From: a virus
Lineage: Duplodnaviria > Caudoviricetes
Virus record (IMG/VR): IMGVR_UViG_3300020045_002341
Location: 1 to 38,126 of that record
Length of the DNA: 38,126 nt
Strand: one strand, 5' to 3'
A program made the position numbers and the translations under genes. Shown here piece by piece: positions 17,238 through 35,327 of this stretch (position 1 is the stretch's first letter; the number at the start of each line of letters is the position of its first letter). The notes beneath the pieces were generated by a model, which saw nothing but the letters and a program-made list of their open reading frames with translations, was not told where the DNA came from and did not search any database.

Positions 17238-17239
17238 GT

Positions 17240-17473
17240 TTAAAACGGTGTGTCTAAATGTTCTTCAATCGGTAAGTTATAATCAACATCAACTGTAATA
17301 GCCTGCAATTGTCTAAATGATTTACGTTGAGAGCCTAAAATATAACCTTTATCTTTCCATTTAGCGCATTTTAATACACCAAAATACCGAACACCACTTT
17401 CAAATGGCATTCGATATAATTCTTTTTTATGCCAAATGTATTTTTTGTTGGCGTAATAAAACCCTTTATTCAT
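17240..17473 (-). CDS. Hypothetical basic protein
   Basis: 77 aa ORF with A-rich upstream region. Confidence 0.65.
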   Translation of the reverse strand: MNKGFYYANKKYIWHKKELYRMPFESGVRYFGVLKCAKWKDKGYILGSQRKSFRQLQAITVDVDYNLPIEEHLDTPF

Positions 17474-17509
17474 AACGTTTTTACATTTTATATTGCTCTT
17501 AGCGATTAG

Positions 17510-18466
17510 TTATAGCCAATGATTAGAAACTGCAAACGCAAGAAAATTCATCTTCTAATTCCAATCTTCCTGTTCTTGGTAATTCGGCTAATTTTACCAA
17601 GTCATCTATTGATTTGTAATCTCTGAAAGAAACTGAATTATATTTCTTTTCCTCATTTCTAAACCAATCAATAAAACGAGTTCCGTAAATTATATTATTT
17701 ATTAAATTTTCATCTGATTTTTTCCAACACAATTCGCAATTGCCTAAACTTCCATGAATTGACAATTTAAAAGGTTGCTTATTCCAAAAATCGTTTAATT
17801 CTCTTTGAGATATTGGCATATAAAAATCAGTTAACAAAGGAAATATTCTTTGCTTTTCTTCTTTAATTTCCGCCCACGATATACGTTTAGGCATATCTTC
17901 TTTTCTGTAACCAATTGATTTTTTATAATTGTTTACACCAAAAACATCATCACAAAATTTCTTTGCTGGAGTAGTTTTTAAATTTTCAGAACAATAAGGA
18001 GCGTCAGGGTTCGGCATACCATCAAAAACACCTTTATTTTTATGCTCAATCATTTTAGAAAATGGCAAAGCATTCATATTCATCGTTTCAAAATCAACTA
18101 ATTTATAAGTAACACCTACATTCATTTCGTTAGAATAAACACCCTCAATTATGTTTAAATTAATTTTCCAATGCTTTACAATGTTTTTTAAAAAATCAAT
18201 CGTTTCTGGTCGTTCCATTCCTGTATTACAAAAAACAAAAACTTTATTATAGTGCTTATACTTTTCAGCGTGCAAAATATGATAAGCCATAAATGCAGAA
18301 CTACGACCACCCGAAACCGTAACCATTAAATTATCACTGGCTATAACACCAGTTTTGCAAGATTGCTGGGTTTGTTTTTCGTTTGAAATATTTTCTTTCA
18401 TTGTAATTTTATTTTTCGTTAGACATTTATTTTTAATAGTCGCAACCTCGCAAAGCTGAGGGAACG
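17510..18466. mobile_element. Integron-cassette-like unit C carrying PAPS-reductase-family gene
   Basis: GTTATAGCCAATGAT (17509) complementary 14/15 to ATCACTGGCTATAAC (18333-18347); attC-like hairpin 18344-18469. Confidence 0.7.
17523..18401 (-). CDS. PAPS reductase/DndC-like PP-loop protein (start likely 18401)
   Basis: VSGGRSS PP-loop, FCNTGMERPET, C-x3-LK, GNCELCWKK and terminal CVC. Confidence 0.85.
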   Translation of the reverse strand: MKENISNEKQTQQSCKTGVIASDNLMVTVSGGRSSAFMAYHILHAEKYKHYNKVFVFCNTGMERPETIDFLKNIVKHWKINLNIIEGVYSNEMNVGVTYKLVDFETMNMNALPFSKMIEHKNKGVFDGMPNPDAPYCSENLKTTPAKKFCDDVFGVNNYKKSIGYRKEDMPKRISWAEIKEEKQRIFPLLTDFYMPISQRELNDFWNKQPFKLSIHGSLGNCELCWKKSDENLINNIIYGTRFIDWFRNEEKKYNSVSFRDYKSIDDLVKLAELPRTGRLELEDEFSCVCSF

Positions 18467-18472
18467 TTAACA

Positions 18473-18480
18473 CAAAGATA
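18473..18480 (-). promoter_or_regulatory. Bacteroidota -7 promoter box, leftward
   Basis: TATCTTTG on minus strand, next to cassette C junction. Confidence 0.6.
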
Positions 18481-18505
18481 TGTAATAATATGTAAAAATA
18501 CGAAT

Positions 18506-18584
18506 ACCACTCATCACACATATTTACCGTTTATCATATTTTGTTTAAAAGTGCTTGCAATTGTTTAAAAGTGTTGTACATTTG
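18506..18584 (+). promoter_or_regulatory. Double-box promoter copy 2 (main rightward early promoter)
   Basis: ACCACTCATCAC (18506), ACCGTTTATCAT (18526), TTG at 18555, TACATTTG at 18577. Confidence 0.7.
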
Positions 18585-18607
18585 TAAGGTAATCAAAAAC
18601 GAAAAAC

Positions 18608-18910
18608 ATGAAAAAATCACTTTTAATATTATCCCTACTATCAACAACAGTAAACGCTCAAAAATTACCAGTTGACAAAGTAGCGCACTTGGGAGTAGGT
18701 TTTATATCTTCAAGCATGACAACGGCTATACTAACTCGATACGATGTTAAACGTCCAGCGTTAATCGGTTTCGGTGTTGGATTTGCACTAGGAGTAGGGA
18801 AAGAAATAGCAGACATCTACACGGGAGGAAATCCTGAGTTTAAAGATGCGTGTGCTACTATATTAGGTTCGGCACTTGGATGTTTTACAATTAAAATAGC
18901 AATTAAATAA
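18608..18910 (+). CDS. YfiM/DUF2279/VanZ-like membrane protein with signal peptide
   Basis: DKVAH...GKEIAD...D motif, N-terminal signal peptide. Confidence 0.65.
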   Translation: MKKSLLILSLLSTTVNAQKLPVDKVAHLGVGFISSSMTTAILTRYDVKRPALIGFGVGFALGVGKEIADIYTGGNPEFKDACATILGSALGCFTIKIAIK

Positions 18911-18913
18911 ATT

Positions 18914-19159
18914 ATGAGAACGGAAAAGGAGCTACTCCAATTGCTATTGGATAATATAGATAAGCTTGAAACGGGTTTATGTTATTTGACTTATTTTCTT
19001 TGGGTTTACCATAACTCAATTTCTTATGATGAAAAACAAAAAATAACTCTTTATATAGAGTTAAAAGCACCTAAAAAGAGAAAGGATTGTTTTCATTGGA
19101 AGCCTAATGAAAAACAGCCACGCATTGAATGGTTAAAGTCACAAATCGAAAAACTATAA
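18914..19159 (+). CDS. Hypothetical protein
   Basis: 81 aa ORF in early operon. Confidence 0.65.
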   Translation: MRTEKELLQLLLDNIDKLETGLCYLTYFLWVYHNSISYDEKQKITLYIELKAPKKRKDCFHWKPNEKQPRIEWLKSQIEKL

Positions 19160-19161
19160 TT

Positions 19162-19365
19162 ATGAAAATAACAGGACACGGAAAGACTACAATTTCCACT
19201 AAATCAAACGATGTAACTGCATCAAATACTATCGGTAATAAAACACTGCCAAAGATAATCCAAACGCAACCTAATAAGGCTTATTTCGAATGCTTAGTTG
19301 AATTTCCATGCGGTCGACGTGAGTACATTAGCAAGCGTGAATATTTACAATTAAAACACGGTTAA
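19162..19365 (+). CDS. Hypothetical protein (start likely 19162)
   Basis: AATTATG start 2 nt after previous stop. Confidence 0.6.
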   Translation: MKITGHGKTTISTKSNDVTASNTIGNKTLPKIIQTQPNKAYFECLVEFPCGRREYISKREYLQLKHG

Positions 19366-19366
19366 T

Positions 19367-19513
19367 ATGCTAGAAGAAAAAGGAACAAAAACCTTGCTTT
19401 TATTTAGCGGGTTAATCGTATTAGTCTTAATGGCAATATCGTTTTGCGTGGGTTGCTATGTAGGAGCGAAACAACAAGAGAAAAAGCAGTGTGTAATTAG
19501 AATTGTAGAGTGA
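19367..19513 (+). CDS. 48-aa single-TM protein (not in ORF track)
   Basis: MLEEKGTKTLLLFSGLIVLVLMAISFCVGCYVG...; fills gap between neighbours. Confidence 0.6.
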   Translation: MLEEKGTKTLLLFSGLIVLVLMAISFCVGCYVGAKQQEKKQCVIRIVE

Positions 19514-19656
19514 TGAAGCAAACACCATACATACGCGCTAAACGTAGAGAAATGTGAGATTGCAACTATCTGCACTATGCCGACGGGAAGCCAATTAAAA
19601 AGCTAATTAGATTAAACTCTAAGATGCAAGTAGTAACAATTGAAATTAAGGTATGA
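19513..19656 (+). pseudogene. Small ORF interrupted by in-frame TGA at 19555
   Basis: MKQTPYIRAKRREM*DCNYLHYADGKPIKKLIRLNSKMQVVTIEIKV*; TGATG and ATGA overlaps at its ends. Confidence 0.55.
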
Positions 19657-19883
19657 ACAGAACAACAATTACCGTCGAGTGGGAAAGTCACACCGATTTT
19701 AGAAACGCGCTTGAACACGTGGCAATGAGTAATGAAATAGGTGTTCATTACAGTTCAAAAAATTTTGTAGTAAACTCAATAACAGAAATAAATGGTAACA
19801 CAACAACAATATACAGTCGCTTTAAAAATTGTTATAGAATATTCACAGCAAGAATTGCAAAGATTAGCAATCGGAAACGCTGA
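19653..19883 (+). CDS. Hypothetical protein
   Basis: 76 aa; overlaps next ORF by 92 nt. Confidence 0.5.
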   Translation: MNRTTITVEWESHTDFRNALEHVAMSNEIGVHYSSKNFVVNSITEINGNTTTIYSRFKNCYRIFTARIAKISNRKR

Positions 19884-20214
19884 ATTAATGCGCGAAGCTG
19901 AAAGGATGAATTCTATAATGGAAAGAGTTGAAAACATGGTAATCATGAAAGAACTTAGAAAAGTGACGCGTGTTCGTGAAGTAGTTACAATTAGACAATC
20001 TTTAATGTGGTGGATACGTGAAAATACAGATTTGACTTTTAATGCAATAGGAAGCCTATTAATGGCAAAAGGAGCAAAAGATAGCACTAAACATTGTAAT
20101 GCACTTCATGCTCATAAAATTTGTAGTAAGGTGACAAGAAAAATTGACAGTAAACTATTTGAAGCTAAACAATGGGTATCTATTGAAATGGCTGGACTAG
20201 AAAAAAGAAAATAA
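19792..20214 (+). CDS. DnaA C-terminal-domain-like HTH DNA-binding protein
   Basis: RVREVVTIRQSLMWWIRENTDLTFNAIG...HCNALHA resembles DnaA domain IV. Confidence 0.65.
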   Translation: MVTQQQYTVALKIVIEYSQQELQRLAIGNAELMREAERMNSIMERVENMVIMKELRKVTRVREVVTIRQSLMWWIRENTDLTFNAIGSLLMAKGAKDSTKHCNALHAHKICSKVTRKIDSKLFEAKQWVSIEMAGLEKRK

Positions 20215-20216
20215 CA

Positions 20217-20498
20217 ATGGAAGAAGAACAAAACCGAGTGATAAAACAAATGTTATTGATTATCTTTACATTACAAAGTTGTTTGCACTTGCTTGATGAA
20301 CTACCAGAAAACAGTCCGTTTAAGCAACAAAGAAAACTTGAATACAACAAATGCTTGTTACAGTTGCAAAAGTTCGTTAAATCGTGTGAAATCGACTTAA
20401 ATAGCATTACGGCAATACTTGAGGGAAGCGAGCAAAACTATATCGACGTTGTAAGTAGCATTGATAAGTTCATTAACACAATAGAAGTTAAACTTTAA
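20217..20498 (+). CDS. Hypothetical protein
   Basis: 93 aa ORF. Confidence 0.6.
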   Translation: MEEEQNRVIKQMLLIIFTLQSCLHLLDELPENSPFKQQRKLEYNKCLLQLQKFVKSCEIDLNSITAILEGSEQNYIDVVSSIDKFINTIEVKL

Positions 20499-20510
20499 AA
20501 TCAAATAAAT

Positions 20511-20876
20511 ATGTTCAAATTAACAGGAACTTTAAAAGTCAAAAACGATACCGTTGTATTATCGGATAAATTCAGCAAACGTGAATTTGTAATTACCGAT
20601 AATTCGAGTATGTACCCACAAGATATTCTATTTCAACTAACGCAAGATAAATGTGCTTTGTTAGATAGTTTTGAAGTAGGTAAAGCAATTGAAGTATCAT
20701 TTAATCTTAATGGTAGAGAATGGATTTCACCACAAGGAGAAACACGTTACTTTAATACCCTTAACGCATGGAAATTAGAGGGCGCGCAAATTCCACAAAC
20801 AACACCAACGGCAAACGCACCGATTCCGAGTACACCAATTGGAAATGATGAACTAACGGATTCATTGCCATTTTAA
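20511..20876 (+). CDS. DUF3127 family SSB-like protein
   Basis: KREFVI...YPQ...SFNLNGREW...YFNTLNAWK with acidic DSLPF tail. Confidence 0.85.
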   Translation: MFKLTGTLKVKNDTVVLSDKFSKREFVITDNSSMYPQDILFQLTQDKCALLDSFEVGKAIEVSFNLNGREWISPQGETRYFNTLNAWKLEGAQIPQTTPTANAPIPSTPIGNDELTDSLPF

Positions 20877-20884
20877 CATTAACC

Positions 20885-20913
20885 AAGCGCGGGTGGATTC
20901 ATTCGCGCTTTTT
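20885..20913 (+). terminator. Intrinsic terminator
   Basis: AAGCGCGGGTG...CATTCGCGCTT plus T tract. Confidence 0.7.
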
Positions 20914-20983
20914 ACCACTCAACACTTTATCCAACCACTCAACACAATTTTAAACAAAACACTTTGAAGTTGGTGTATGTTTG
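20914..20983 (+). promoter_or_regulatory. Double-box promoter copy 3
   Basis: ACCACTCAACAC at 20914 and 20934; TATGTTTG at 20976. Confidence 0.75.
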
Positions 20984-21007
20984 TTGGGTAATTAAAAACA
21001 AGAAATT

Positions 21008-21241
21008 ATGGATTTAATAATGAAATTAATTAAAAACGAGCAAATAACAGATAAGGATTTAGCTTGGGAATTGTATGATATCTGCGATAGTGTTCATTCG
21101 AGTTGTAACTCTGATTGTCCTGTTTATGAATTAAACGGTAATAGCGTTCCAGATACAGCTAATGATTGGAAAGTAAATAGAGGTTGTGACTGTTTTAAAA
21201 ATGGTGATGAAATGTTATCCTTTATTCGTTCTAAAATATAA
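21008..21241 (+). CDS. Cys-rich hypothetical protein
   Basis: 77 aa, five Cys plus His, possible metal binding. Confidence 0.6.
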   Translation: MDLIMKLIKNEQITDKDLAWELYDICDSVHSSCNSDCPVYELNGNSVPDTANDWKVNRGCDCFKNGDEMLSFIRSKI

Positions 21242-21248
21242 TGTGACC

Positions 21249-21518
21249 ATGAAATCACTAACTAAACAACCAACACAAAGCGACCTTTTAACGCTTTCAA
21301 AATATGAAGCGAGTAGAAACATACGCGCGACACGTTTTAGCCATGCAGAACTATCGCAAATGACGTTAAAAAGCTATGTAGCTAAGAAAGGAATAGGTAG
21401 CAGAAAAGATGTAACACCTGACAACTTCGACCAGATTATAAAATTCAAGCGAGTTGGTGATGCAATGCAAGCGGTTGGACTGGTAGGAAATGAACCGACA
21501 CTTTTAATTTTGGAATGA
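21249..21518 (+). CDS. Hypothetical protein (start likely 21249)
   Basis: ORF coupled to the methyltransferase gene. Confidence 0.55.
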   Translation: MKSLTKQPTQSDLLTLSKYEASRNIRATRFSHAELSQMTLKSYVAKKGIGSRKDVTPDNFDQIIKFKRVGDAMQAVGLVGNEPTLLILE

Positions 21519-22219
21519 TGAAGAAATACAAAGTATTAAACCTATACGCTTGTCTTGGTGGCAATCGTTACAAGTGGGATGAAGTAGCAAAAGAAGCTGG
21601 AATAGATTTAGAGGTTACGGCTGTTGAACTTGATGGTGAATTATCAAGATTGTACCTGGAAAGATTCCCAAATGATATAGTTATTATAACTGATGCTCAC
21701 CAATATTTGTTAGACCATTACAAAGAATTTGATTTTGTATGGAGTTCTCCACCCTGCCCAAGTCATTCATCTGTTAGAATAAGTCAAAAGAATAGAGATT
21801 CTTTTACTGCTGTTTATCCGGATATGAAACTTTATGAAGAAATCATTTTTTTAGATAATTATTTCAATGGTAAATATGTAGTGGAAAATGTAATACCATT
21901 TTACGAACCATTAATTAAATATCAAAAAAGAGGAAGGCATTTATATTGGTCTAATTTCATGTTACCTAGCGATGTTAACGAAAGATTAGATGGCAAGGGA
22001 TTGATTTCTACAGCAAAAGATGAAGTAAATAAACTTTGTGCGTTCCACGAAATAGATAAAAACTTCCTTGATACTTACAAAGGGATTCAATCAAAGGTTA
22101 AATTAGTTAGAAACTTAGTTGATTATTCTGTTGGAAAAACAATATTTCAAACAGCTTTAGGAATATTCAAAAAACAAAACGAAAATCAAATTAGCATATT
22201 TGACCAAATACCGGAATGA
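21515..22219 (+). CDS. C5-cytosine DNA methyltransferase (short phage type)
   Basis: Motif I-like LNLYACLGG, catalytic SPPC, ENV. Confidence 0.85.
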   Translation: MMKKYKVLNLYACLGGNRYKWDEVAKEAGIDLEVTAVELDGELSRLYLERFPNDIVIITDAHQYLLDHYKEFDFVWSSPPCPSHSSVRISQKNRDSFTAVYPDMKLYEEIIFLDNYFNGKYVVENVIPFYEPLIKYQKRGRHLYWSNFMLPSDVNERLDGKGLISTAKDEVNKLCAFHEIDKNFLDTYKGIQSKVKLVRNLVDYSVGKTIFQTALGIFKKQNENQISIFDQIPE

Positions 22220-22599
22220 TGAAACACCCAGAATACGATTTACAAGTAGCGGTTTGTGAGTATTTGAATTTACAGTACCCAAAATTAATGTACACTAGCG
22301 ATACAATAGCTTCTATTAAGTTAACACCACAACAAGCAAGTCGAAACAAGAAGATTCAAAAGGATGGCTTTAAAATGCCTGATGTTTTGATATTCGAACC
22401 GCGTAGTAAATTCCATGGATTATTCATCGAACTAAAAGTTGATTCACCTTGGAAGAAAGATGGAACGCTAAAGAAGAACGAACACTTAGAGGGGCAATGG
22501 AAAACGATTTTAGACCTAGTTTCTAAAGGGTACTATGCCGACTTCGCAACGGGGTTCGATGAAGCAAAAGAAAAAATTGATTGGTATATGAATTTGTAA
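22216..22599 (+). CDS. VRR-NUC-like nuclease / resolvase
   Basis: E-x2-LQ...PDVLI...GLFIELK...Q PD-(D/E)xK signature. Confidence 0.8.
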   Translation: MMKHPEYDLQVAVCEYLNLQYPKLMYTSDTIASIKLTPQQASRNKKIQKDGFKMPDVLIFEPRSKFHGLFIELKVDSPWKKDGTLKKNEHLEGQWKTILDLVSKGYYADFATGFDEAKEKIDWYMNL

Positions 22600-22609
22600 G
22601 AATAATTCG

Positions 22610-22730
22610 TATATTTGTGAATAGTCTATACATCCACAGACTTAAAAAAAATTATTATAAGCCTTGGAATTTCAAACGGAGTGGATGCTGTTTGTCTTTT
22701 CAGGGCTTTATCATTTAATACATCCACTGA
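22610..22730 (+). promoter_or_regulatory. Promoter and structured leader RNA of replication gene
   Basis: TATATTTG at 22610; hairpin loops ATACATCCAC and AGTGGATG are complementary; second ATACATCCAC at 22718. Confidence 0.65.
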
Positions 22731-23612
22731 ATGGCACGACCAGAACGAAAAACAGTCGATTATTTTCCGCACTACATTAGTGACGGAAAGAAAATGTTCT
22801 ACATAGAACAAAAATACGGTAACGATGGATACGCTACATGGTTTAAGATTTTAGAATCTTTAGCAAGTACTGATAACCATTTCTTGAACCTATCTAATAA
22901 AATGGATTTACTATTTCTTAGCGCAAAATGTAGAGTTTCAGATTCAATCATTTTAGAAATACTAAATGACCTTTCTGAATTAGGAGAAATAGATGATTTC
23001 CTTTGGATGAATAAGATTGTGTACTCACAAAAATTTATTGATTCAATACAAGATGCTTATATGCGTAGGAATAATAAATGTATGAGTTACGAAGATTTCT
23101 GTATACATTTTTCTAGTTTATGTACTACAATAACTAAGTTACAGTATGATAAAAAGAACGGTAATACACAAAGTATATTAAACAATAATAAATCAAATCA
23201 TACTAAACAAAATAATATTAAAGAAAAAGAAAATAAATTATTACTCTTTGATTCATGGTGGCATCAATATTCTTATAAACATGATTCAGCAAAGTGTAAA
23301 GAATTATGGTGTAAACTTTCATTTGAAGAAATAAACAAAATTTTAGAAGTAGTTTCCGATTATGTTAAATCTACACCTGATAAAACATATAGGCTTAAAC
23401 CTATGAACTACTTGAAACGTGAAGCATGGAATAACGAAATAATAATTAAAACCTTAAACAATGGAACTACAAACAACCAACAACAGAAACGAACTCTCGA
23501 ACAACAAGCAGAAGACATTACAGCCAGAATTTTTGGCCATGGTTCAGGACAAAATCAAAACCCAACAAACACCGATAACGGTGTCGAAGACATTGATTTC
23601 GTCTTTTCTTAA
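22731..23612 (+). CDS. Replication initiator (DUF4373/Lin1244-like N-terminus)
   Basis: MARP...DYFPH...KYGNDGYATWFKILE N-terminus, Asn/Lys linker, F-x2-WW-x2-Y...P-x-NYL C-terminal domain. Confidence 0.8.
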   Translation: MARPERKTVDYFPHYISDGKKMFYIEQKYGNDGYATWFKILESLASTDNHFLNLSNKMDLLFLSAKCRVSDSIILEILNDLSELGEIDDFLWMNKIVYSQKFIDSIQDAYMRRNNKCMSYEDFCIHFSSLCTTITKLQYDKKNGNTQSILNNNKSNHTKQNNIKEKENKLLLFDSWWHQYSYKHDSAKCKELWCKLSFEEINKILEVVSDYVKSTPDKTYRLKPMNYLKREAWNNEIIIKTLNNGTTNNQQQKRTLEQQAEDITARIFGHGSGQNQNPTNTDNGVEDIDFVFS

Positions 23613-24261
23613 AGAAGATAACGAGTTTTGCGCTTTGGATTTAGATAGACTCGCAAAGGCATTTGTTTACATTACACGCGTTTACTATGGCTTAAATCCT
23701 GATAACGTTGCAGACGATGTTTACCGTGTTGTAATAGCTGAAATAATCAACAAATATAAAACGCTTACTTTTCTACAACTTAATTTAGCATACTCAGAAC
23801 GCACGATTGAAAAGCGACAAGGTGTTTCCCTTACTAAGGGGGAGTTAATGCAACCAATCGAAGATATGTGGCATAAAAAGGGGGTTGTTGAATCTATTGC
23901 GAAACAAAACTTATCAGATTTTGAAGAAAAACAGAACGCTTTTCAAATTGCACAACAATTCAAAGAAGACGCAATGAGTATTTACTTACAAGATTTAGCA
24001 AATAAAAACAAGGTTTACAGCGGTTCGGATTTTCAGGCAAGTTCTTTCGCTAAAAACTTTGAGGAACTATTTACACCTGACGAATTAGAAGCGTTTAAAT
24101 TGGATGCTAAACGTTTACACCGTGAACTAAGTTTTCAATTTGAAAATTCAAAGGAGATTATCAATTTACCGCCAGCTGGTGAAGATAAGATTTATTGCAA
24201 GGTACTACTTAACAACGCCTTAAATCGTGGAATGAATGGATATTTACTAATTAAAGATTGA
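23461..24261 (+). CDS. Hypothetical protein, possible helicase-loader-like partner
   Basis: 266 aa after initiator, 152-nt overlap; function from synteny only. Confidence 0.45.
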   Translation: MELQTTNNRNELSNNKQKTLQPEFLAMVQDKIKTQQTPITVSKTLISSFLKEDNEFCALDLDRLAKAFVYITRVYYGLNPDNVADDVYRVVIAEIINKYKTLTFLQLNLAYSERTIEKRQGVSLTKGELMQPIEDMWHKKGVVESIAKQNLSDFEEKQNAFQIAQQFKEDAMSIYLQDLANKNKVYSGSDFQASSFAKNFEELFTPDELEAFKLDAKRLHRELSFQFENSKEIINLPPAGEDKIYCKVLLNNALNRGMNGYLLIKD

Positions 24262-24264
24262 GTT

Positions 24265-24450
24265 ATGACAGATGAAGAAAAAGCATTTTTTAATGCTAAA
24301 AGTCTAAAGTTAGAGATTGATTATACAAGAAAAAAACTTGCTTTGACTAATAAACTAAACGAATTAAATAGTCAGTATAGTAAAGATTTAAAGGATTTTA
24401 TTTCAGAAATTGAAGAGTATAAAAAGCAGAAAAATAGAAACATTAATTAA
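24265..24450 (+). CDS. Hypothetical coiled-coil protein
   Basis: 61 aa ORF. Confidence 0.55.
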   Translation: MTDEEKAFFNAKSLKLEIDYTRKKLALTNKLNELNSQYSKDLKDFISEIEEYKKQKNRNIN

Positions 24451-24502
24451 CGGGGAATTATGAAAGAAGAACTTTTAAAAATGGGTTACTCATTAAAGTA
24501 AA

Positions 24503-24782
24503 AACCGCTTATAAACTAAAATAATTAATATGAAAAATGAAATTTATGCAGTAATAGCATACAGATATGGAGATAATGAAAAGCACTCTTATACAATTGG
24601 CGTGTTCAATAAAAAACATGCAGCTATAAAGTGTGCTGATAGTCATACCGAATACAGAGATGGTAAATATTCATGTGTTGTTGAAAAGTGTTTGTTAAAT
24701 GAATTTGATAATATTTCAAGTGACTATACAACTGAAATTTACAGAACAAAGTCAAGGGGGTCAATTAACCGCTTATAAACTA
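24503..24782. repeat. 16-bp direct repeat AACCGCTTATAAACTA flanking ORF 24530-24778
   Basis: Exact copies at 24503-24518 and 24767-24782. Confidence 0.85.
24530..24778 (+). CDS. Hypothetical protein
   Basis: 82 aa ORF. Confidence 0.65.
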   Translation: MKNEIYAVIAYRYGDNEKHSYTIGVFNKKHAAIKCADSHTEYRDGKYSCVVEKCLLNEFDNISSDYTTEIYRTKSRGSINRL

Positions 24783-24837
24783 TTCTAACCGTCCATCACA
24801 ATATTGAAAAATTGCCCGTGGTGAATGGTTAGATTTG
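24768..24837 (+). promoter_or_regulatory. Double-box promoter copy 4
   Basis: ACCGCTTATAAA (24768), ACCGTCCATCAC (24788), TAGATTTG (24830). Confidence 0.7.
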
Positions 24838-24858
24838 TTGAAACTTAAAAAAGGAATT

Positions 24859-25386
24859 ATGAAAACATTAAATTTAAGAGATGAAAATTATAATTGGAAA
24901 TCATTTCAATATAATGATTTATCTGAATTAAAATCTGAATTAGAAAATAGGAAAATTTTAATTGGTGACGATGCTTCGATTGGTGACGATGCTTCGATTG
25001 GTAACCGTGCTTCGATTGGTGACGATGCTTCGATTGGTAACCGTGCTTCGATTGGTGACGATGCTTCGATTGGTGACGATGCTTCGATTGGTGACGATGC
25101 TTCGATTGGTAACCGTGCTTCGATTGGTGACGATGCTTCGATTGGTGACGGTATTAAACTAATTACAGGAATTTACTTTAATGGCTCAAATCATTCAGTT
25201 ACATACGTTGGAGAAAATAAAATTTCAATAGGATGCAAATGTTTTTCAATTGACGAATGGAAGAATAAATTTAAAGAAATTGGAGAAAATAACAATTATT
25301 CCGAAGAGCAAATAAAAGAGTACGAAAATTACATTTTACTAATTGAGCAATTTGTTAAAATACAAGAAGAAGCAACAACAATTTAA
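24859..25386 (+). CDS. Hexapeptide-repeat (left-handed beta-helix) protein
   Basis: (IGDDAS/IGNRAS) x10 followed by SIGC...W domain. Confidence 0.8.
   Translation: MKTLNLRDENYNWKSFQYNDLSELKSELENRKILIGDDASIGDDASIGNRASIGDDASIGNRASIGDDASIGDDASIGDDASIGNRASIGDDASIGDGIKLITGIYFNGSNHSVTYVGENKISIGCKCFSIDEWKNKFKEIGENNNYSEEQIKEYENYILLIEQFVKIQEEATTI
24961..25150 (+). repeat. 18-bp coding tandem repeat, about 10.5 copies
   Basis: ATTGGTGACGATGCTTCG x7 and ATTGGTAACCGTGCTTCG x3. Confidence 0.95.
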
Positions 25387-25396
25387 ACTAAGAATT

Positions 25397-25963
25397 ATGA
25401 ACGAATTAGAAATTGACTTAGGCGTTACGATTGTCCCTAAGTCAGACCAATTAAACGCGGATGATTTAATTGCTGGAGCGCGTACAATTCGAATACGCGA
25501 CATGAAGCAAACGGAAAGCGAAACGCAACCGATTAGTATTTACTTTGATGGTGACAATAATAAGCCTTATAAGCCATCAAAAGGAATGCGTAGGGTATTA
25601 GTTCAACTTTGGGGAACTAAAGGTAAAGAGTATGTTGGACGAAGCCTAACACTATTTCGGGATGAAACAGTTAAATTTTCTGGCGCAGAAGTAGGTGGAA
25701 TTGTTATAAGCCATGCAAGCCATATTCAAGGTGTTAAAAAGCTATCTATTACAGTTGCAAGAAGTAAAAAAAAGATGTTTACTATTACACCTATTGACTA
25801 TATCGCACCTGCGCCAATTGACCCGACAAATGCAATTAGTATTTTGAACGAATCGAAAACATTATCTGAACTTAAATCGAATTGGAGCAAGTTAAATAAA
25901 GATGAACAATCTTTACCAATTATATTGGCTGTTAAAGATAAATTGAAAGGAGAATTAGCATGA
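25397..25963 (+). CDS. Putative recombination (single-strand annealing-type) protein
   Basis: KSDQLNADDL motif; coupled to YqaJ exonuclease; function inferred from pairing. Confidence 0.5.
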   Translation: MNELEIDLGVTIVPKSDQLNADDLIAGARTIRIRDMKQTESETQPISIYFDGDNNKPYKPSKGMRRVLVQLWGTKGKEYVGRSLTLFRDETVKFSGAEVGGIVISHASHIQGVKKLSITVARSKKKMFTITPIDYIAPAPIDPTNAISILNESKTLSELKSNWSKLNKDEQSLPIILAVKDKLKGELA

Positions 25964-26607
25964 TAGCATACAAAGATATAATTCAAGGTAGCGAGGAATG
26001 GCACGCTATTAAGTGGGGTAAAATTGGTGGTACACTTTCGAAAGGATTGTTTGTTAAATCAGATACACTATTAATTGACATACTTTCACAGCGTTTAGAA
26101 GAATTTGACTTTATCGAATCGTTTACATCCGATGCTATGGAGCGAGGTAATGAATTAGAGCCAGAAGCGCGCGAGTATTTGAATCAATACACAGGTTTAA
26201 CATTTGAGGAATATGGATGGTTACAAAGCGAGAAAAACGAATTACTAGGTATTTCACCAGATGGAATGACAAGTGATGAAACAATGGCTTGTGAAATTAA
26301 ATGTTTTGGACGTAAGAAGCACATGGAAGTACTTTTAAGCCAAGAAATACCTTTAGAACATATTGCACAATGTGTTCATTATTTCACGGTCAATCCAAAG
26401 TTACAGAAGCTATATTTTATTGCTTACAGACCCGAAGCACCTAAACACTTCATTAAAGAGTTAACACGTGAATCAATGCTTAATTTTGGAACTAAAGCTA
26501 AGCCGGTATTAGAATCAATAGATGAAGCTATAAAAGTAGCACTAAAAGAAGCAAACACATTACTCAAGCAAATTAACGAGAAAACAAAACAACTAAACGA
26601 TTTTTAA
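25960..26607 (+). CDS. YqaJ/lambda-exonuclease family protein
   Basis: QGSEEW...G-x2-LEP-x-AR...SPDG...EIKC...Q motifs. Confidence 0.9.
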   Translation: MIAYKDIIQGSEEWHAIKWGKIGGTLSKGLFVKSDTLLIDILSQRLEEFDFIESFTSDAMERGNELEPEAREYLNQYTGLTFEEYGWLQSEKNELLGISPDGMTSDETMACEIKCFGRKKHMEVLLSQEIPLEHIAQCVHYFTVNPKLQKLYFIAYRPEAPKHFIKELTRESMLNFGTKAKPVLESIDEAIKVALKEANTLLKQINEKTKQLNDF

Positions 26608-26608
26608 C

Positions 26609-26842
26609 ATGGAAAACGGAAACACACCAATTAACCCTACAGAAATATATAGCGAACGTGGATTTAAAATTGGAAAATACGATGGCTTAACAAAACGAGA
26701 ATATTTTGCAAGTTTGGCTATGCAAGGTATGTTGTCAAATTCATCTTTAGTCAAATCAATAAACACAAGAGATGGAATCGAAATATTATCAGAAACTTCA
26801 TTAATATTTGCAGACGAAATTTTAAAACAACTTGATAAATAA
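26609..26842 (+). CDS. Conserved phage hypothetical protein
   Basis: GLTKREYFA-x2-AMQG...AD motif common in phage early genes. Confidence 0.7.
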   Translation: MENGNTPINPTEIYSERGFKIGKYDGLTKREYFASLAMQGMLSNSSLVKSINTRDGIEILSETSLIFADEILKQLDK

Positions 26843-26847
26843 ATAAC

Positions 26848-27045
26848 ATGGAAAACGACAGAAAAAAAGAGGTTGAAATTATACTAAAATCAATCGCGAA
26901 AGATTTGATTACCGATTCTACTATTATTGCAGAGGGGGAAATGAGCAAGAAAGCGAGGGATTTAATGGTTGCTAATTGTGAAAGATTCATTGACTACAAT
27001 AAGCAGTTGGATATTTTAAGTGGGAAAAATAGTGTTAGGGGTTAA
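26848..27045 (+). CDS. Hypothetical protein
   Basis: 65 aa; stop codon lies inside GTTAAC at the cassette junction. Confidence 0.6.
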   Translation: MENDRKKEVEIILKSIAKDLITDSTIIAEGEMSKKARDLMVANCERFIDYNKQLDILSGKNSVRG

Positions 27046-27328
27046 CGGTTTCGGGCTTTGCGTTCGGCAGGGCTTAGAAGCACAAAAGATTAATTAACAA
27101 CTAAAATTCAATAGAATGAAAAAAGATGGATTAACAAACGAAACCCCTGCTAATGCAAAACCCGTGTTAGCGGTTCGTACCTGTGAAGGTTCATGTGAAA
27201 TTCACAAGGGCGAAGTGATACCTGTAATAATTGAAGGACACGGATGGGATGGCACAAATTTCAACTATTGCCAAGGGGCAATAGAGGAAGATGAACGCAG
27301 GGGATTTGTCTTAAGGCATGACCGATAA
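27046..27328. mobile_element. Integron-cassette-like unit A
   Basis: Hairpin 27043-27169; GTTAGCGGT (27166) complementary 8/9 to ACCGATAAC (27321). Confidence 0.7.
27116..27328 (+). CDS. Cassette-borne hypothetical protein, possible Zn-binding
   Basis: 70 aa, C-x3-C-x2-H...C; start inside hairpin loop. Confidence 0.65.
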   Translation: MKKDGLTNETPANAKPVLAVRTCEGSCEIHKGEVIPVIIEGHGWDGTNFNYCQGAIEEDERRGFVLRHDR

Positions 27329-27769
27329 CGGTAAGTATATGGCAAGTTGAGGATTAAAATGTGCTACCCTATTGAGCCACACGAAAGTAAATTAACAGCA
27401 CAAATATTGCAAAATGGAACGACACCCCCAATTTGCTATATACATTGTTATAGGGCGTTTTAATTTTATCACAATGAGCTTAGTAACATTTAAAGATGGC
27501 AAAAAAGAATTTAAACTTGGAACTGTTTCAATGAATTGGCTTGAGAAAAGAGATGTTTTTGATAAATTTCAAGAAGACCATGACCAATACTCGGAAATAA
27601 TTTTTAAAACAAGTAAGCATAACGTAATCGAACTATCATCTGAAATTATAAAAGCAGCAAAAAGCGACCCTATGTTAAGGGCTGATATTCATGATAAATT
27701 ATTGGAATTTGCTGAATTTGTAAAAAATAGTAATGGGCTAGTGTGTACGCTTTCTTAAATGCCCTATAA
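27329..27769. mobile_element. Integron-cassette-like unit B
   Basis: Hairpin 27326-27450; GTTATAGGGCGTTT (27447) complementary 13/14 to AAATGCCCTATAAC (27757). Confidence 0.7.
27414..27758 (+). CDS. Cassette-borne hypothetical protein (alternative start 27474)
   Basis: 114 aa ORF; stop overlaps the inverse core site. Confidence 0.65.
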   Translation: MERHPQFAIYIVIGRFNFITMSLVTFKDGKKEFKLGTVSMNWLEKRDVFDKFQEDHDQYSEIIFKTSKHNVIELSSEIIKAAKSDPMLRADIHDKLLEFAEFVKNSNGLVCTLS

Positions 27770-27789
27770 CACAAAAACAAGTCGCATTT

Positions 27790-27859
27790 ACCACTCAACA
27801 CACAATACAACCGTTCATCACAATTTCGTTAAATGTTCGGTTGGTTGTGCTTATCTTCG
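27790..27859 (+). promoter_or_regulatory. Double-box promoter copy 5
   Basis: ACCACTCAACAC (27790), ACCGTTCATCAC (27810), TATCTTCG (27852). Confidence 0.7.
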
Positions 27860-32637: not shown

Positions 32638-34120
32638 ATTTAAGGCAACGCAAGTATTCCATGACATTTGGAACGCTATACACGAAACAATAATTGATAA
32701 CGGAAATGTAAAGCGTAAATATCGGTTATTTGAAGAAGTAGGGGGCTCACGTTCTTCTAAAACATGGAGTAATTTTCAAGTTATCTACTTGTATTCAGTT
32801 CAAAACAGAATGAAGAATATAGTTGTTATGCGTGACACGGCCAGCGATTGTAGAGATAAGGTAGAAACAGATTGGAGACAATGGTTGAAAGACCCTAATC
32901 TAAGAATAAAGGAATATGAAGATGGTAAAATAAGCGTTGAACAATTAGACGAATATTTAAAGGTCGAAGATTTAAGTCAATATATGGTAGAGAATAAGTC
33001 TTTGCACACTTGGACAAATAAGCAAACGGGTTCTTTTATAACTTTTACGGGTACAGATGATGAAAATAGAGCAATTGGTAAAAGTCAGCACGTTTTATGG
33101 GTAAATGAGCCTTATATGTTTAGTGAGGAGGTTTTTAAACAGCTTTCACAGCGTACAAGCGATTTTATAATTGTAGATTGGAATCCGAAAGCAAATCATT
33201 TCATTGAAAAACAACGTTTAAAGCCTGATACATTTACGCATCGTTCAAGCTTACTTATGAATCCATTTTGCCCAATTGAATCAAAGAAGCAAATACTATC
33301 TTACCAACCAATAAAATACGCTAGAGCGGTTTTAAATGGACTTTTTAATAATCAAGATAATGAATTTGAATTAAGAAAAGCATTAGATTATGATTTCGAA
33401 AATAACCCATTACAACTATCTAAAAGAGATTTAAATGAACTTCTCAGATGCAAGAATAATGAAGAAAGATTAACGGCTAGTGATTACCATTACAAAGTTT
33501 ATTTCTTAGGTGAAAAAGCTGAAAAGCCAAATCGAATATTTAATTGGAGAAAAATATCGAAATTAGAATTTGATGAATTAACACCTAAAGCAGAATGTAT
33601 TGGTGTTGACTGGGGAAAAGTTGACCCATGGGGAATATTGCATGCTAAATATATTGACGGTAAACTTTATTTAAGGGAGTTAAACTATCAAAGTGAGAAC
33701 GAAATACGTAATTCAATCGGAGCAAACGAAAGTGTTCAAATAGGCAACGACGATGAGGGGATAGGTATAGTAGTATGGAAGTTTAATAAGTTAGGAATAA
33801 AAAAAACAACACCTATTATTTGCGACAATAATAGACCACTTAAAATTGCTGGATTAAGACGTGCTGGATGGGAGAAAGCATTACCAGCATCAAAACCTAA
33901 AGGTTCGATTATAGATGGTATTGGCTTGCTTGAAAACTTAGAGGTTTACTACACAGAAGATTCACCAAATATTGAATTAGAGCAAGAAAATTATTCTTAT
34001 AAAACGGATAGATACGGAATACAACTAGAAGATACAGAGGACGCAAATAATCACACTATTGACCCAGCTAGATACGTCGCTTTATATTTACAATCAATTG
34101 GTATTATAAAGTCTGTATAA
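32624..34120 (+). CDS. terL: Terminase large subunit (PBSX/SPP1-like)
   Basis: Walker A GGSRSSKT, Walker B LWVNE, DWNP, nuclease GVDWG-x2-DP and DANNHTIDPARY. Confidence 0.92.
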   Translation: MMKIKFKATQVFHDIWNAIHETIIDNGNVKRKYRLFEEVGGSRSSKTWSNFQVIYLYSVQNRMKNIVVMRDTASDCRDKVETDWRQWLKDPNLRIKEYEDGKISVEQLDEYLKVEDLSQYMVENKSLHTWTNKQTGSFITFTGTDDENRAIGKSQHVLWVNEPYMFSEEVFKQLSQRTSDFIIVDWNPKANHFIEKQRLKPDTFTHRSSLLMNPFCPIESKKQILSYQPIKYARAVLNGLFNNQDNEFELRKALDYDFENNPLQLSKRDLNELLRCKNNEERLTASDYHYKVYFLGEKAEKPNRIFNWRKISKLEFDELTPKAECIGVDWGKVDPWGILHAKYIDGKLYLRELNYQSENEIRNSIGANESVQIGNDDEGIGIVVWKFNKLGIKKTTPIICDNNRPLKIAGLRRAGWEKALPASKPKGSIIDGIGLLENLEVYYTEDSPNIELEQENYSYKTDRYGIQLEDTEDANNHTIDPARYVALYLQSIGIIKSV

Positions 34121-35327
34121 TAATCAATGCTTCTTCTTTGCTATACCCAGCCTTAACTAATGTTTCGATTGTTTTAGCTTTATTTAAAGAAACATCGGAA
34201 TTAGCTTTTTTATCTTCTTGAAGTGCTGGAATATGTGAATAGTCAAGTTCTAGCCATTCGCCATCAGGCATCTTTAAACCTTTAGTAAATGTAGAGCAGA
34301 AATCTTGTGAAAAAGGAATAATCCCGTCTTGATAAGCCATCTTTAATCCCTCATTCAAATTAGCTTGTATCTTTGATTTCTCTTTACTAAAGATGTTATC
34401 ATTTAATCCAATTGAATCAATTAAACGCTTCATATCTTCGCTTATTTCTTCAAATAACATCATTTGATTAATTGGATAAGCGGTGTGCTCCCAGCTTGCA
34501 GGTGTTTTAGTAATTGCTATTGAGCTTTGATTGTCACCATGTCCATAATCTTCTTGTGAAAATTGCTTACTTAAATCTTTTCTATCATCGGAATCCATAG
34601 CTATTGGACCTATCATATCTTTTCCACCACTAGATACAAAACCTAAAGCACCACGCTTATTTATATTTGCATTTCTAAATCCATAAGCACCACGAATATT
34701 AGTAATAGGCATTTGATTTGCTACAATTGGCGAAATACCTTTAAATGGATTATCTGGGTCAATATTCTTGTGATGGATTAATTCGGACGCTTTGTAATAC
34801 TTTGTTTCACTTCCGTAATTCTCTAAACAATAACGCTTAATTATAGAATCAATATCGTACTGCTCAAATCTCAAATTATTTAATTCAATCTTTATTTTTT
34901 CAGGTGGTAAATTGTTCAATATACTTGGTGCATCTGTTAATGATGAACCCCAAATAGGGTAAGTAATACGATTTCCATAAATCAAATAATGTAACGCACA
35001 CTCAATTTTAAATTCTTCGCCACTTTGAATAGGATTAGGAGATTCTAGTAAAGCCACAAATTTAGAATCTTCAATAATCTTTCCTTTTTCCGTTCCGTCC
35101 ATTTTCTTATGCACAAAACGACCATTTGAAAACATCTTTGCAAATCGGTTAAAAACAATGTATATTTCAGGTGTTGTTGAATACAATTGGTACTCGTTGC
35201 CAATAACATCTAACCACACTTCTTTTTGATTACCATCGAATTTTAAAGGTTGCTGAACATATGTTTTTGTGAATGAATCAGTACCGCGACCAAAAGATAG
35301 TTTGAATTTACCGAATTGAATATTCAT
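34104..35327 (-). CDS. Portal protein (HK97-like), inverted orientation
   Basis: LLESPNP-x-QSG-x-EF...YGN...LPP...ELIH...GISP motifs; 407 aa. Confidence 0.88.
   Translation of the reverse strand: MNIQFGKFKLSFGRGTDSFTKTYVQQPLKFDGNQKEVWLDVIGNEYQLYSTTPEIYIVFNRFAKMFSNGRFVHKKMDGTEKGKIIEDSKFVALLESPNPIQSGEEFKIECALHYLIYGNRITYPIWGSSLTDAPSILNNLPPEKIKIELNNLRFEQYDIDSIIKRYCLENYGSETKYYKASELIHHKNIDPDNPFKGISPIVANQMPITNIRGAYGFRNANINKRGALGFVSSGGKDMIGPIAMDSDDRKDLSKQFSQEDYGHGDNQSSIAITKTPASWEHTAYPINQMMLFEEISEDMKRLIDSIGLNDNIFSKEKSKIQANLNEGLKMAYQDGIIPFSQDFCSTFTKGLKMPDGEWLELDYSHIPALQEDKKANSDVSLNKAKTIETLVKAGYSKEEALIIIQTL

Follow-up and report, generated by a model that had tools for sequence, protein, structure and literature searches.

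The origin of integron cassettes is a long-standing open question. Gene transfer through phage-borne attC sites has been described (Qi et al. 2023, PMC9892861); in that account the sites of Polaribacter phage P12002L were read as divergent mosaic remnants, one of them, attC1, gave no recombination with IntI1, and polarity, start codons and a cognate enzyme were not described. The phylum Bacteroidota has been reported to be almost free of integrons (PMC9024848), and recombinases of the type considered below, found near attC sites, were judged not to be IntI (Cury 2016). The I2 helix is held responsible for the handling of single-stranded sites by the integrase, and an enzyme lacking it is expected to perform a harmful second exchange (PMC7790495). 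With IntI1, loss of the extrahelical bases favours recombination of the top strand (PMC5027507).

The window analysed here is the whole of phage record IMGVR_UViG_3300020045_002341, 38,126 nt in length and classed as complete, with terminal repeats. A preceding sequence-only reading proposed that it carries integron-like cassettes and knew of no description of such a route in phages, a statement overtaken by the work of Qi et al. (2023). Reversed gene polarity and a linked enzyme are absent from that account (PMC9892861), and our literature search found no paper on the present system. Our comparisons add, as judged from sequence, that the GTT end is also a point at which hairpins and gene bodies reassort, and that a single gene occurs as a cassette with four arm pairs.

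Results

Three cassettes, A, B and C, of 957, 283 and 441 bp, were delimited from AA^C to AA^C, the caret marking the cut point (Table 1). The inverted repeats lie where they had been placed, and the coding strand reads TAACG...TGTTA in all three. Stem mismatches are mostly G:T on the coding strand, as proposed, the non-Watson-Crick pairs comprising ten G:T, three C-A and one A-A. The flank of GTT does complement the 3' end of its own gene (14/15 nt in A, 8/9 in B and 13/14 in C), whereas its match to the end of its own hairpin is only 6/15, 5/9 and 9/14, respectively; across the full 15-nt arm the decayed cassette B reaches 9/15. As a measure of chance, 6 of 1,761 GTT sites in the window attain at least 13/15, and four of these six are both ends of A and C.

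Table 1. Cassettes and associated features in the window (positions in nt; AA^C, cut point)
Feature	Position	Strand	Basis or remarks
Cassette A, 957 bp	17510..18466	-	AA^C to AA^C; also in contigs L001 and L170
Hairpin A, attC-like, 126 nt	18344..18469	-	71.2 bits, host-only model R1; 94% identity with hairpin of a different gene in L005/L006
PAPS-reductase-like ORF, 292 aa counted from in-loop ATG	17523..18401	-	PF01507, phrog_424
Outer arm at the 5' side of cassette A, 15 nt starting at GTT, codes for VIASD	18333..18347	-	14/15 complementary to 17509-17523
3' outer arm of cassette A, ends AAC, shares last base of stop codon	17509..17523	-	Arm comparison
TATCTTTG, promoter-like box directly upstream of cassette A	18473..18480	-	Resembles Bacteroidota -7 promoter box; putative
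Sequence following cassette A, a degenerate attI-like site or a secondary target	17488..17512	-	85% common to L001 over 26 nt; within background, host attI matrix
Cassette B, 283 bp, outer arms decayed	27046..27328	+	AA^C to AA^C
Hairpin B, 127 nt	27043..27169	+	94.6 bits vs 21.4 on opposite strand (R1)
Cassette B ORF, 70 aa, no family assigned	27116..27328	+	TAA stop is the junction
Cassette C, 441 bp	27329..27769	+	AA^C to AA^C
Hairpin C, 125 nt	27326..27450	+	64.6 bits vs 11.5 on opposite strand (R1)
Cassette C ORF, 114 aa, no family assigned	27414..27758	+	ORF list; alternative Met at 27474
Sequence following cassette C, a degenerate attI-like site or a secondary target	27767..27790	+	First 14 nt also 3' of cassette A in L170; within background, host matrix

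Folding of the two strands gave -9.9/-9.4, -13.4/-13.9 and -10.0/-9.0 kcal/mol with DNA parameters, and z-scores of -3.3/-0.9, -2.4/-3.0 and -2.8/-1.4 as RNA (A, B and C); folding energy by itself gives the coding strand no clear advantage. A covariance model built solely from Bacteroidota chromosomal sites (R1) recovered exactly the three hairpins from the window (65-95 bits), with no other match above 22 bits. In the alignment of host sites (n=43), 91.7% of cells are paired, with two-sided changes at 20 of 25 pairs, and slid controls give 36-48%. The core pairs A2-T, A3-T and C4-G are retained in 43/43 host sites, and the core is paired in all three window sites. The outer arms measure 15 bp and carry a G:T at position 11 in 35/36 viral and 88/95 host cassettes.

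The attC signature assigned to these repeats thus stands for its AAC/GTT core, far-end arms, G:T skew and length (125-127 nt, within the 57-141 bp attC range), and fails for the extrahelical bases and the two-sided spacer. No extrahelical base is conserved in the 20-bp stem of the host sites, none occurs in A or C, and the one in B lies on the other arm; the asymmetric spacer noted earlier consists of a G:T beside the core and, beyond it, 4-5 nt that are left unpaired on the 5' arm alone. Because of these missing bases, the lopsided spacer and the 15-bp outer arms, the hairpins are not classical attC sites. An Rfam scan returned one irrelevant match (E 0.78), and blastn of hairpins B-C against GenBank phages gave three short unrelated matches.

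The cassette A product, with a weak SspD match (E 6e-8) and 425 homologues, is PAPS-reductase-like and likely has a role in DNA modification. For ORFs B and C, PADLOC and NCBIfam named nothing beyond a weak LmuC score (E 0.008); structure matches of ORF C in the Atlas were all unnamed, and a search for viral relatives of ORF C and ORF 28135 found none.

That these are mobile units is borne out by junction-exact exchange in three relatives (G016, L001 and L170). In the complete relative G016, homology ends at 27047 and restarts at 27788, with a different cassette of ~400 bp between, and stops at most 2 nt from the cut point, whose position inside TAAC is borrowed from integron chemistry and left ambiguous by sequence alone. 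Cassette A occurs in three contexts, in this phage, in L001 (94.8% over 973 nt) and, with other flanks, in L170; the left flanks have nothing in common across the three. The L001 copy has a box 12 nt upstream similar to TATCTTTG, a putative promoter element that resembles the Bacteroidota -7 box. The flank pattern 3' of cassette A, searched elsewhere, was matched only by the L001 contig, and neither a circle, an empty site nor an excision joint was seen. On these alignments, the units are exchangeable at fixed junctions.

Hairpins are not permanently tied to their genes, since the two reassort at the GTT end. Hairpin A shares 94% identity with the L005 hairpin, which precedes another body, and 75% with that of L001, where the body is 98% identical; hairpin B has a counterpart in L025 at 93% identity, and its first 20 nt recur exactly in 25 viral and 122 genome loci among the matches listed. 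Nine copies of one gene body are 90-97% identical while their hairpins fall to 51%, the arms diverging up to TGTT, and one ordinary phage gene, which also exists outside any cassette, takes cassette form with four different pairs of arms.

These exchanges could in principle reflect cassettes made once by site-specific recombination and now swapped within the lineage by phage-encoded homologous recombination over similar hairpins and flanks, with no host enzyme acting. The genome encodes a YqaJ-type exonuclease, its array ends are degenerate, and the near-identical 3' arms of hairpin A and the L001 hairpin would suffice for a crossover; bodies that share an arm pair belong to different clades (L204, L290), and G016 lacks the whole block from 17238 to about 18500, cassette A included, with borders unrelated to AAC. 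The abrupt end of flank homology in G016, the unrelated left flanks of cassette A and the mere ~5 nt of homology left at TGTT in the nine-copy family nevertheless make this account unlikely.

The absence of a tyrosine recombinase from the phage was confirmed, a six-frame search of the record, which is classed as complete, giving no PF00589 match. The relatives and this recombinase-free genome support the proposed recourse to an outside enzyme, which would act in trans. Among 100 Bacteroidota genomes, scanned as the earlier reading had suggested, the site family occurs in 55 and a linked recombinase was found in 34, 29 of them with sites (odds ratio 8.9, p 1e-5, uncorrected for kinship); in 26 of the 55 genomes with sites no enzyme match reached the threshold, and five genomes with the enzyme have no site. 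In 5/5 genomes checked the best enzyme match stands at the head of the array, one of the five being broken. The host enzyme lacks ~41 residues of IntI4 that correspond to the IntI-specific insertion (I2); linked enzymes score 175-231 bits with TIGR02249, under the cut-off of 265, and are closer by sequence score to XerA. XerC/D score far lower than the array-linked enzyme. A related enzyme directly follows the array in 2/10 phage records, and the host integrase as a single query against viral contigs gave one weak 31% match. Array ends share a motif common to host and many phage ends (p 7e-15); viral array ends as a group are above background against host attI ends, and the two in the window are no better than 14% and 25% of 521 background sites.

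Reversed polarity extends well beyond the three window genes, to 90/93 phage-side cassettes with genes on the folding strand, whereas host cassettes are classical in 84/86 and have folding-strand genes in 2/86. The gene is mirrored and the site is not: a mirror-image site is excluded, crossover end and G:T polarity being alike in hosts and phages. Flipped host bodies would turn the position-11 G:T into A-C, found in just 1/36 viral cassettes, and are rejected as the main source. The N-terminal peptides attributed to the hairpin arms were found in the three ORFs, and the in-hairpin ATGs are in frame and are likely starts. That of gene C is predicted to be the least secure; codon 21 of this gene is another Met, immediately past the hairpin, and most structure matches start there. 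An open ATG in the GTT frame occurs in 30/75 phage-side and 3/78 host hairpins (p 2e-8), and, alongside this comparison, A at -3 in 30/49 versus 17/52 (p 0.005). A leader-length tree (26/121 proteins, 19 changes) was kept out of the proof because its start calls are unverified.

Discussion

The units are, in our judgement, probably exchangeable cassettes of an integron-like system common to Bacteroidota and phages, in which a host I2-less tyrosine recombinase likely cuts and joins folded ssDNA. The TAACG...TGTTA strand would fold and be cut at AA^C, yielding circles (957, 283 and 441 nt) whose stem would be lengthened by about 11 bp through pairing of the outer arms. The host, or another phage infecting the same cell, would provide the enzyme in trans while infection proceeds. 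With no extrahelical bases, the opposite strand could also be cut at its own AAC, and excision between two such points would fuse a gene body with the hairpin of the adjacent cassette; this may explain the observed swaps. The folding strand would offer phage genes an A-rich loop with ATG upstream and stop triplets downstream, a plausible reason for their placement on it since Bacteroidota need no Shine-Dalgarno, and phage promoters would drive reading of the cassettes. How an I2-less enzyme would avoid the harmful second exchange receives no account from this scheme. Also counting against it are the G016 borders away from AAC, the background-level scores of the two array ends in the window, the genomes with only sites or only the enzyme, the similar folding energies of the two strands, and the failure to see circles, excision joints or empty sites.

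We regard as very improbable the view that these are ordinary attC sites under a classical IntI, with genes inverted through chance top-strand insertions. The AAC/GTT core, G:T skew and ~125-nt length are compatible with attC (PMC5027507), and 5/6 phage attC sites were recombined by IntI1 (PMC9892861); against this stand the lack of conserved extrahelical bases, the one-sided spacer, linked enzymes without the IntI insertion and below the TIGR02249 cut-off, the near absence of the position-11 A-C expected after inversion, the failure with IntI1 of the P12002L site of the same layout, and the single complete integron reported by IntegronFinder in Bacteroidetes proper. Still less credible are mRNA structures that regulate how small phage genes are translated or how stable their messages are; these would suit coding-strand folds with G:U-compatible pairs around a start codon but leave the far-end arms and junction-exact exchange unaccounted for, match no Rfam family and conflict with a folding strand that is antisense in 84/86 host cassettes, although a secondary RNA role may exist beside recombination.

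The cassette system proposed here would let phages that have no recombinase of their own acquire accessory genes, often methyltransferase-like ones, and shuffle them. As it is common in a phylum reported to be nearly integron-free, a large pool of mobile genes may escape standard tools. Because one gene is found both free and in several arm pairs, and the linked enzyme lacks I2, cassette origin and the role of I2 become testable on natural substrates. More tentatively, and with rather more doubt than belief, we suggest that roughly half of Bacteroidota have a second, I2-less integron branch with an enzyme that would cut bulge-free hairpins at both ends. Phages would repeatedly turn their own genes into cassettes, in which the hairpin supplies a start codon and leader that can be interchanged and the outer arm supplies a stop codon; if so, a gene that exists both free and in a cassette would expose the birth of cassettes, and integrons as they were before I2.

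With classical integrons, above all sedentary arrays of homogeneous ~125-nt sites, this system shares the AAC/GTT hairpin, the AA^C cut, the pairing of ends on circularisation, the one-strand G:T skew and host arrays beside a tyrosine recombinase and attI-like site. It differs in conserving none of the 2-3 extrahelical bases of the classical L'' arm, in replacing the unpaired 5-6/5-6 spacer with a 4-5-nt bulge on the 5' arm, in its 15-bp outer arms with fixed G:T, in a linked enzyme without I2 and in hairpins that reassort with gene bodies; and while the classical cassette carries a top-strand gene ending at attC, the phage genes here lie on the folding (bottom) strand. Phage CALINs (PMC9892861) are alike in having attC-like sites in lytic phages without integrase and methyltransferase cargo, and P12002L_attC1 stands at the head of an 816-bp unit around methyltransferase gp35, in reversed layout and with a 13/15 far-end match; R1 gave this 49-nt site no score, so its kinship with the window sites rests on motif and arms. 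The solitary cassettes at attG (Loot et al., bioRxiv 10.1101/2022.09.11.507474) also lie outside an integron and use a resident promoter, as cassette A stands alone behind its promoter-like box, although that work concerns IntI1 and classical attC in bacterial chromosomes, without reversed polarity. XerC/D acting on CTX phage (PMC7790495) likewise involve an I2-less tyrosine recombinase that works in trans on a folded phage single strand, but their target is dif and a whole genome is integrated, whereas here the enzyme is a separate, array-linked one and the units are single genes.

The hairpin family

The hairpin cassettes of this phage are real, mobile and integron-like, yet lie outside the classical integron definition. 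Checked on the window sequence, the three hairpins (TAACG to TGTTA on the coding, or folding, strand), their unit lengths, far-end complements and N-terminal peptides all agree with the sequence-only reading, as do the stem mismatches, mainly G:T on the coding strand (10 G:T, 3 C-A, 1 A-A). A far-end partner complementary at 13/15 or better exists for six of 1,761 GTT sites in the window, four of these being the ends of cassettes A and C; the outer arms of cassette B, the two ends of its gene body, have decayed (9/15). Folding energies, compared on both strands of hairpins A-C, left the choice of strand unsettled.

Exact matches to the initial 20 nt of hairpin B lie in 25 viral loci and in at least 122 genome loci among the matches listed (some 380 by estimate), nearly all Bacteroidota as judged by title. 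Across 43 distinct aligned sites, taken from host loci only, the stem is 91.7% paired (36-48% in slid controls), with two-sided changes in 20 of 25 pairs. A covariance model built from these host sites only recovers hairpin B at 94.6 bits, A at 71.2 and C at 64.6; no other window match exceeds the 21.4 bits scored by B's opposite strand. It returns 6-15 matches in each of five near-complete phages, a few of them opposite-strand repeats, and the proposed Bacteroidota scan located sites in 55 of 100 genomes (an even phylum sample, seed genome left out).

Gene polarity and its signals

A scripted search of the compared loci, requiring a far-end match of at least 13/15, yielded 216 cassettes (180 distinct), and polarity was counted in the 179 distinct ones with an ORF of at least 40 aa. 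The reversed gene direction claimed for the window extends to the phage-side members of the family: the ORF lies on the folding strand in 90 of 93 viral and metagenome cassettes (metagenome contigs being presumed phage) versus 2 of 86 from host genomes, both sets having been seeded with the same 20-mer or the cassette A protein. Seven phage records, examined over eleven regions that overlap the set of 93, contain 49 confident cassettes, all of them reversed and 29 starting within the hairpin. Crossover end and G:T polarity are identical in host and phage-side groups, and thus the gene has turned, not the site. Many phage cassette proteins in loci L159-L167 have DNA methyltransferase-like N-termini, judged by eye.

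Among phage-side hairpins, 30 of 75 contain an open ATG in the frame reading GTT as Val, compared with 3 of 78 from hosts (p 2e-8), enrichment being mild in the second frame and absent in the third. An A at -3, reported in the available text of PMC6847099 to favour initiation in Flavobacterium, which is without Shine-Dalgarno sequences, precedes 30/49 phage-side in-hairpin starts versus 17/52 host loop ATGs. In 39 of 86 host bodies a stop triplet, antisense there, finishes 13 nt short of the far AAC end (background 6%); phage-side bodies have one 13-14 nt before that end in 55 of 94, and the TAA of TAAC serves as stop for 21 of 90 phage genes. In-hairpin ATGs and end-of-body stop triplets thus let the folding strand supply both start and stop, which, we infer, drives the phage polarity.

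Exchange, capture and hairpin swapping

Another cassette at the same junction, as the sequence-only reading anticipated, is present in G016, a complete relative: one different cassette of ~400 bp (83-nt hairpin, outer arms 11/15) lies between 27047 and 27788, the genomes being 83% identical up to the former position and 96% from the latter. Counting against mobility, neither an empty site nor a circle was seen among the sequences compared. Gain and loss borders coincided with the junctions in this swap, but the block missing from G016 (17238-~18500) has non-AAC borders. That block faces the terminator after the endolysin gene, and cassette A in L001 is likewise convergent with late genes. Two other loci, L001 and L170, also carry cassette A, each next to a left flank unrelated to the others; the 14 nt 3' of it in L170 are identical to those after cassette C in the window. 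The 3' half of a mini-hairpin in L330 (Table) resembles the reverse complement of the window flank after cassette C.

Relatives of the PAPS-reductase-like cassette A protein were parsed in 157 of 161 loci (129 distinct). Fifteen of the 129 occur as cassettes, which use four arm pairs between them, and the free/cassette state needs six changes on a FastTree tree, five forced by strong branches. Free relatives start 'MKENLMVTV'; in cassette form the hairpin leader substitutes for the first codons and the body ends at the stop codon, and in locus L227 the gene's own start is readable in the 5' arm. Two of the arm pairs have their outer 6 nt in common and may have one origin. The sequences suggest three to four captures of this gene family, a reading rather than a strict count because arm ends are shared and the relatives also show losses (L202) and gene conversion.

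The evidence for hairpin swapping is confined to a single gene family. Hairpin A shares 94% identity with a hairpin on an unrelated body in L005, and the L001 copy of cassette A has a body 98% and a hairpin 75% identical. Among nine copies of a sister cassette, body identity is 90-97% and the outer arms do not vary, and hairpin identity drops to as low as 51%, the differences extending up to TGTT; one host pair retained its hairpin (95%). If excision took place between two top-strand AAC points, a body would become fused to the hairpin of the neighbouring cassette, and IntI1 recombination without extrahelical bases shifts toward the top strand (available text of PMC5027507). The swaps could alternatively stem from a second strand exchange or from recombination over short homology.

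The candidate recombinase

The record has terminal repeats and a completeness rating of 100%; terminase, portal, capsid and tape-measure genes indicate a tailed phage, whose host is probably a member of Bacteroidota, since the hairpin family occurs there. As claimed, no tyrosine recombinase is encoded: PF00589 is unmatched in a six-frame search of the window, and none of 54 window ORFs scanned matched a site-specific recombinase. The intergenic motif starting TTACCACTCA, which is also conserved in G016, lies upstream of several early operons; together with its box it probably serves the phage as a promoter or regulatory site.

The host enzyme that had been postulated was sought by motif scan, and a tyrosine recombinase was found in 11 of 80 host loci fetched with flanks, with the array downstream on the same strand in eight and the enzyme pointing away in three. 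Six enzymes tested score 194-241 bits with NF040815 and fall below the TIGR02249 cut-off, with split matches; by alignment, ~41 residues of IntI4 are missing. The enzyme occurs in 34 of 100 genomes (29 with both, 26 with sites only, 5 with enzyme only, 40 with neither), an odds ratio of 8.9 with each genome counted as independent regardless of kinship. Since host genomes have several arrays but mostly one enzyme gene, action at a distance appears to be normal in hosts. Enzyme relatives directly follow the last junction in two of 10 phage records, and in none of the five at least 90% complete. As a group, 33 viral array ends resemble the 17 host ends (p 7e-15), one viral end sharing an 18-nt match with a host end, but neither end in the window rises above background. 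In L164, from phage G008, the same 28-nt site terminates two arrays.

Features of the window and of compared loci
Feature	Location	Strand	Remark
Cassette A	window 17510-18466	minus	hairpin 18344-18469
Cassette B	window 27046-27328	plus	hairpin 27043-27169
Cassette C	window 27329-27769	plus	hairpin 27326-27450
Block of cassette A, 77-aa ORF (17240-17473) and promoter-like flank	window 17238-18500	minus	absent in G016
Repeated intergenic motif starting TTACCACTCA, then TAnnTTTG-like box	window 18505, 20912, ~24786, 27788
Hexapeptide-repeat protein	window 24835-25386		repeat copy number unlike G016
Portal gene	window 34104-35327	minus	alone between plus-strand terminase and head genes
Phage-borne recombinase	L156 1198-2031	as cassette genes	after last junction; intact
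Phage-borne recombinase	L157 1101-1902	as cassette genes	after last junction; frameshifted
Short TAACA...TGTTA mini-hairpin	L330 2526-2571		after its cassette
Family site, cultured Polaribacter phage P12002L	L032 39122-39245		36.5 bits
Family site, cultured Polaribacter phage P12002L	L032 14502-14625		30.6 bits

Relation to integrons

We consider it probable that these are exchangeable integron-like cassettes common to Bacteroidota and their phages, likely cut by a host recombinase that is without the IntI-specific insertion. As to the novelty suggested for this phage route, no account of the system was found in the literature searched, which had most subscription papers and bioRxiv supplements outside its reach and included the accessible parts of PMC4889954, PMC9024848, PMC7790495, PMC13616975, bioRxiv 2022.02.06.479319 and bioRxiv 2022.09.11.507474; phage CALINs, however, are already published (Qi et al. 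2023, PMC9892861, accessible part). In that text P12002L_attC1 is inactive and attC2 active with IntI1. We find attC1 at the head of a reversed 816-bp methyltransferase unit, the far end of which attC2 overlaps. The two further P12002L sites (Table) are absent from the tests in the accessible part of Qi et al., and this phage offers a ready-made experimental system.

Gene-body ends pair over ~15 bp; among cassettes selected for good far-end complementarity, outer-arm position 11 is G:T in 35 of the 36 viral and 88 of the 95 host ones. A G:T pair directly follows the AAC/GTT core in 41 of the 43 host sites; beyond it the 5' arm bulges by 4-5 nt, and then follows a 20-bp stem, in which no conserved extrahelical base was seen among the 43 aligned. 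Identity with integron attC, as first proposed, fails at classical membership, because classical attC carries 2-3 extrahelical bases and a spacer of 5-6 nt on each arm (PMC5027507, available text), but the overall logic is the same, with a 5'-arm bulge in place of the two-arm spacer.
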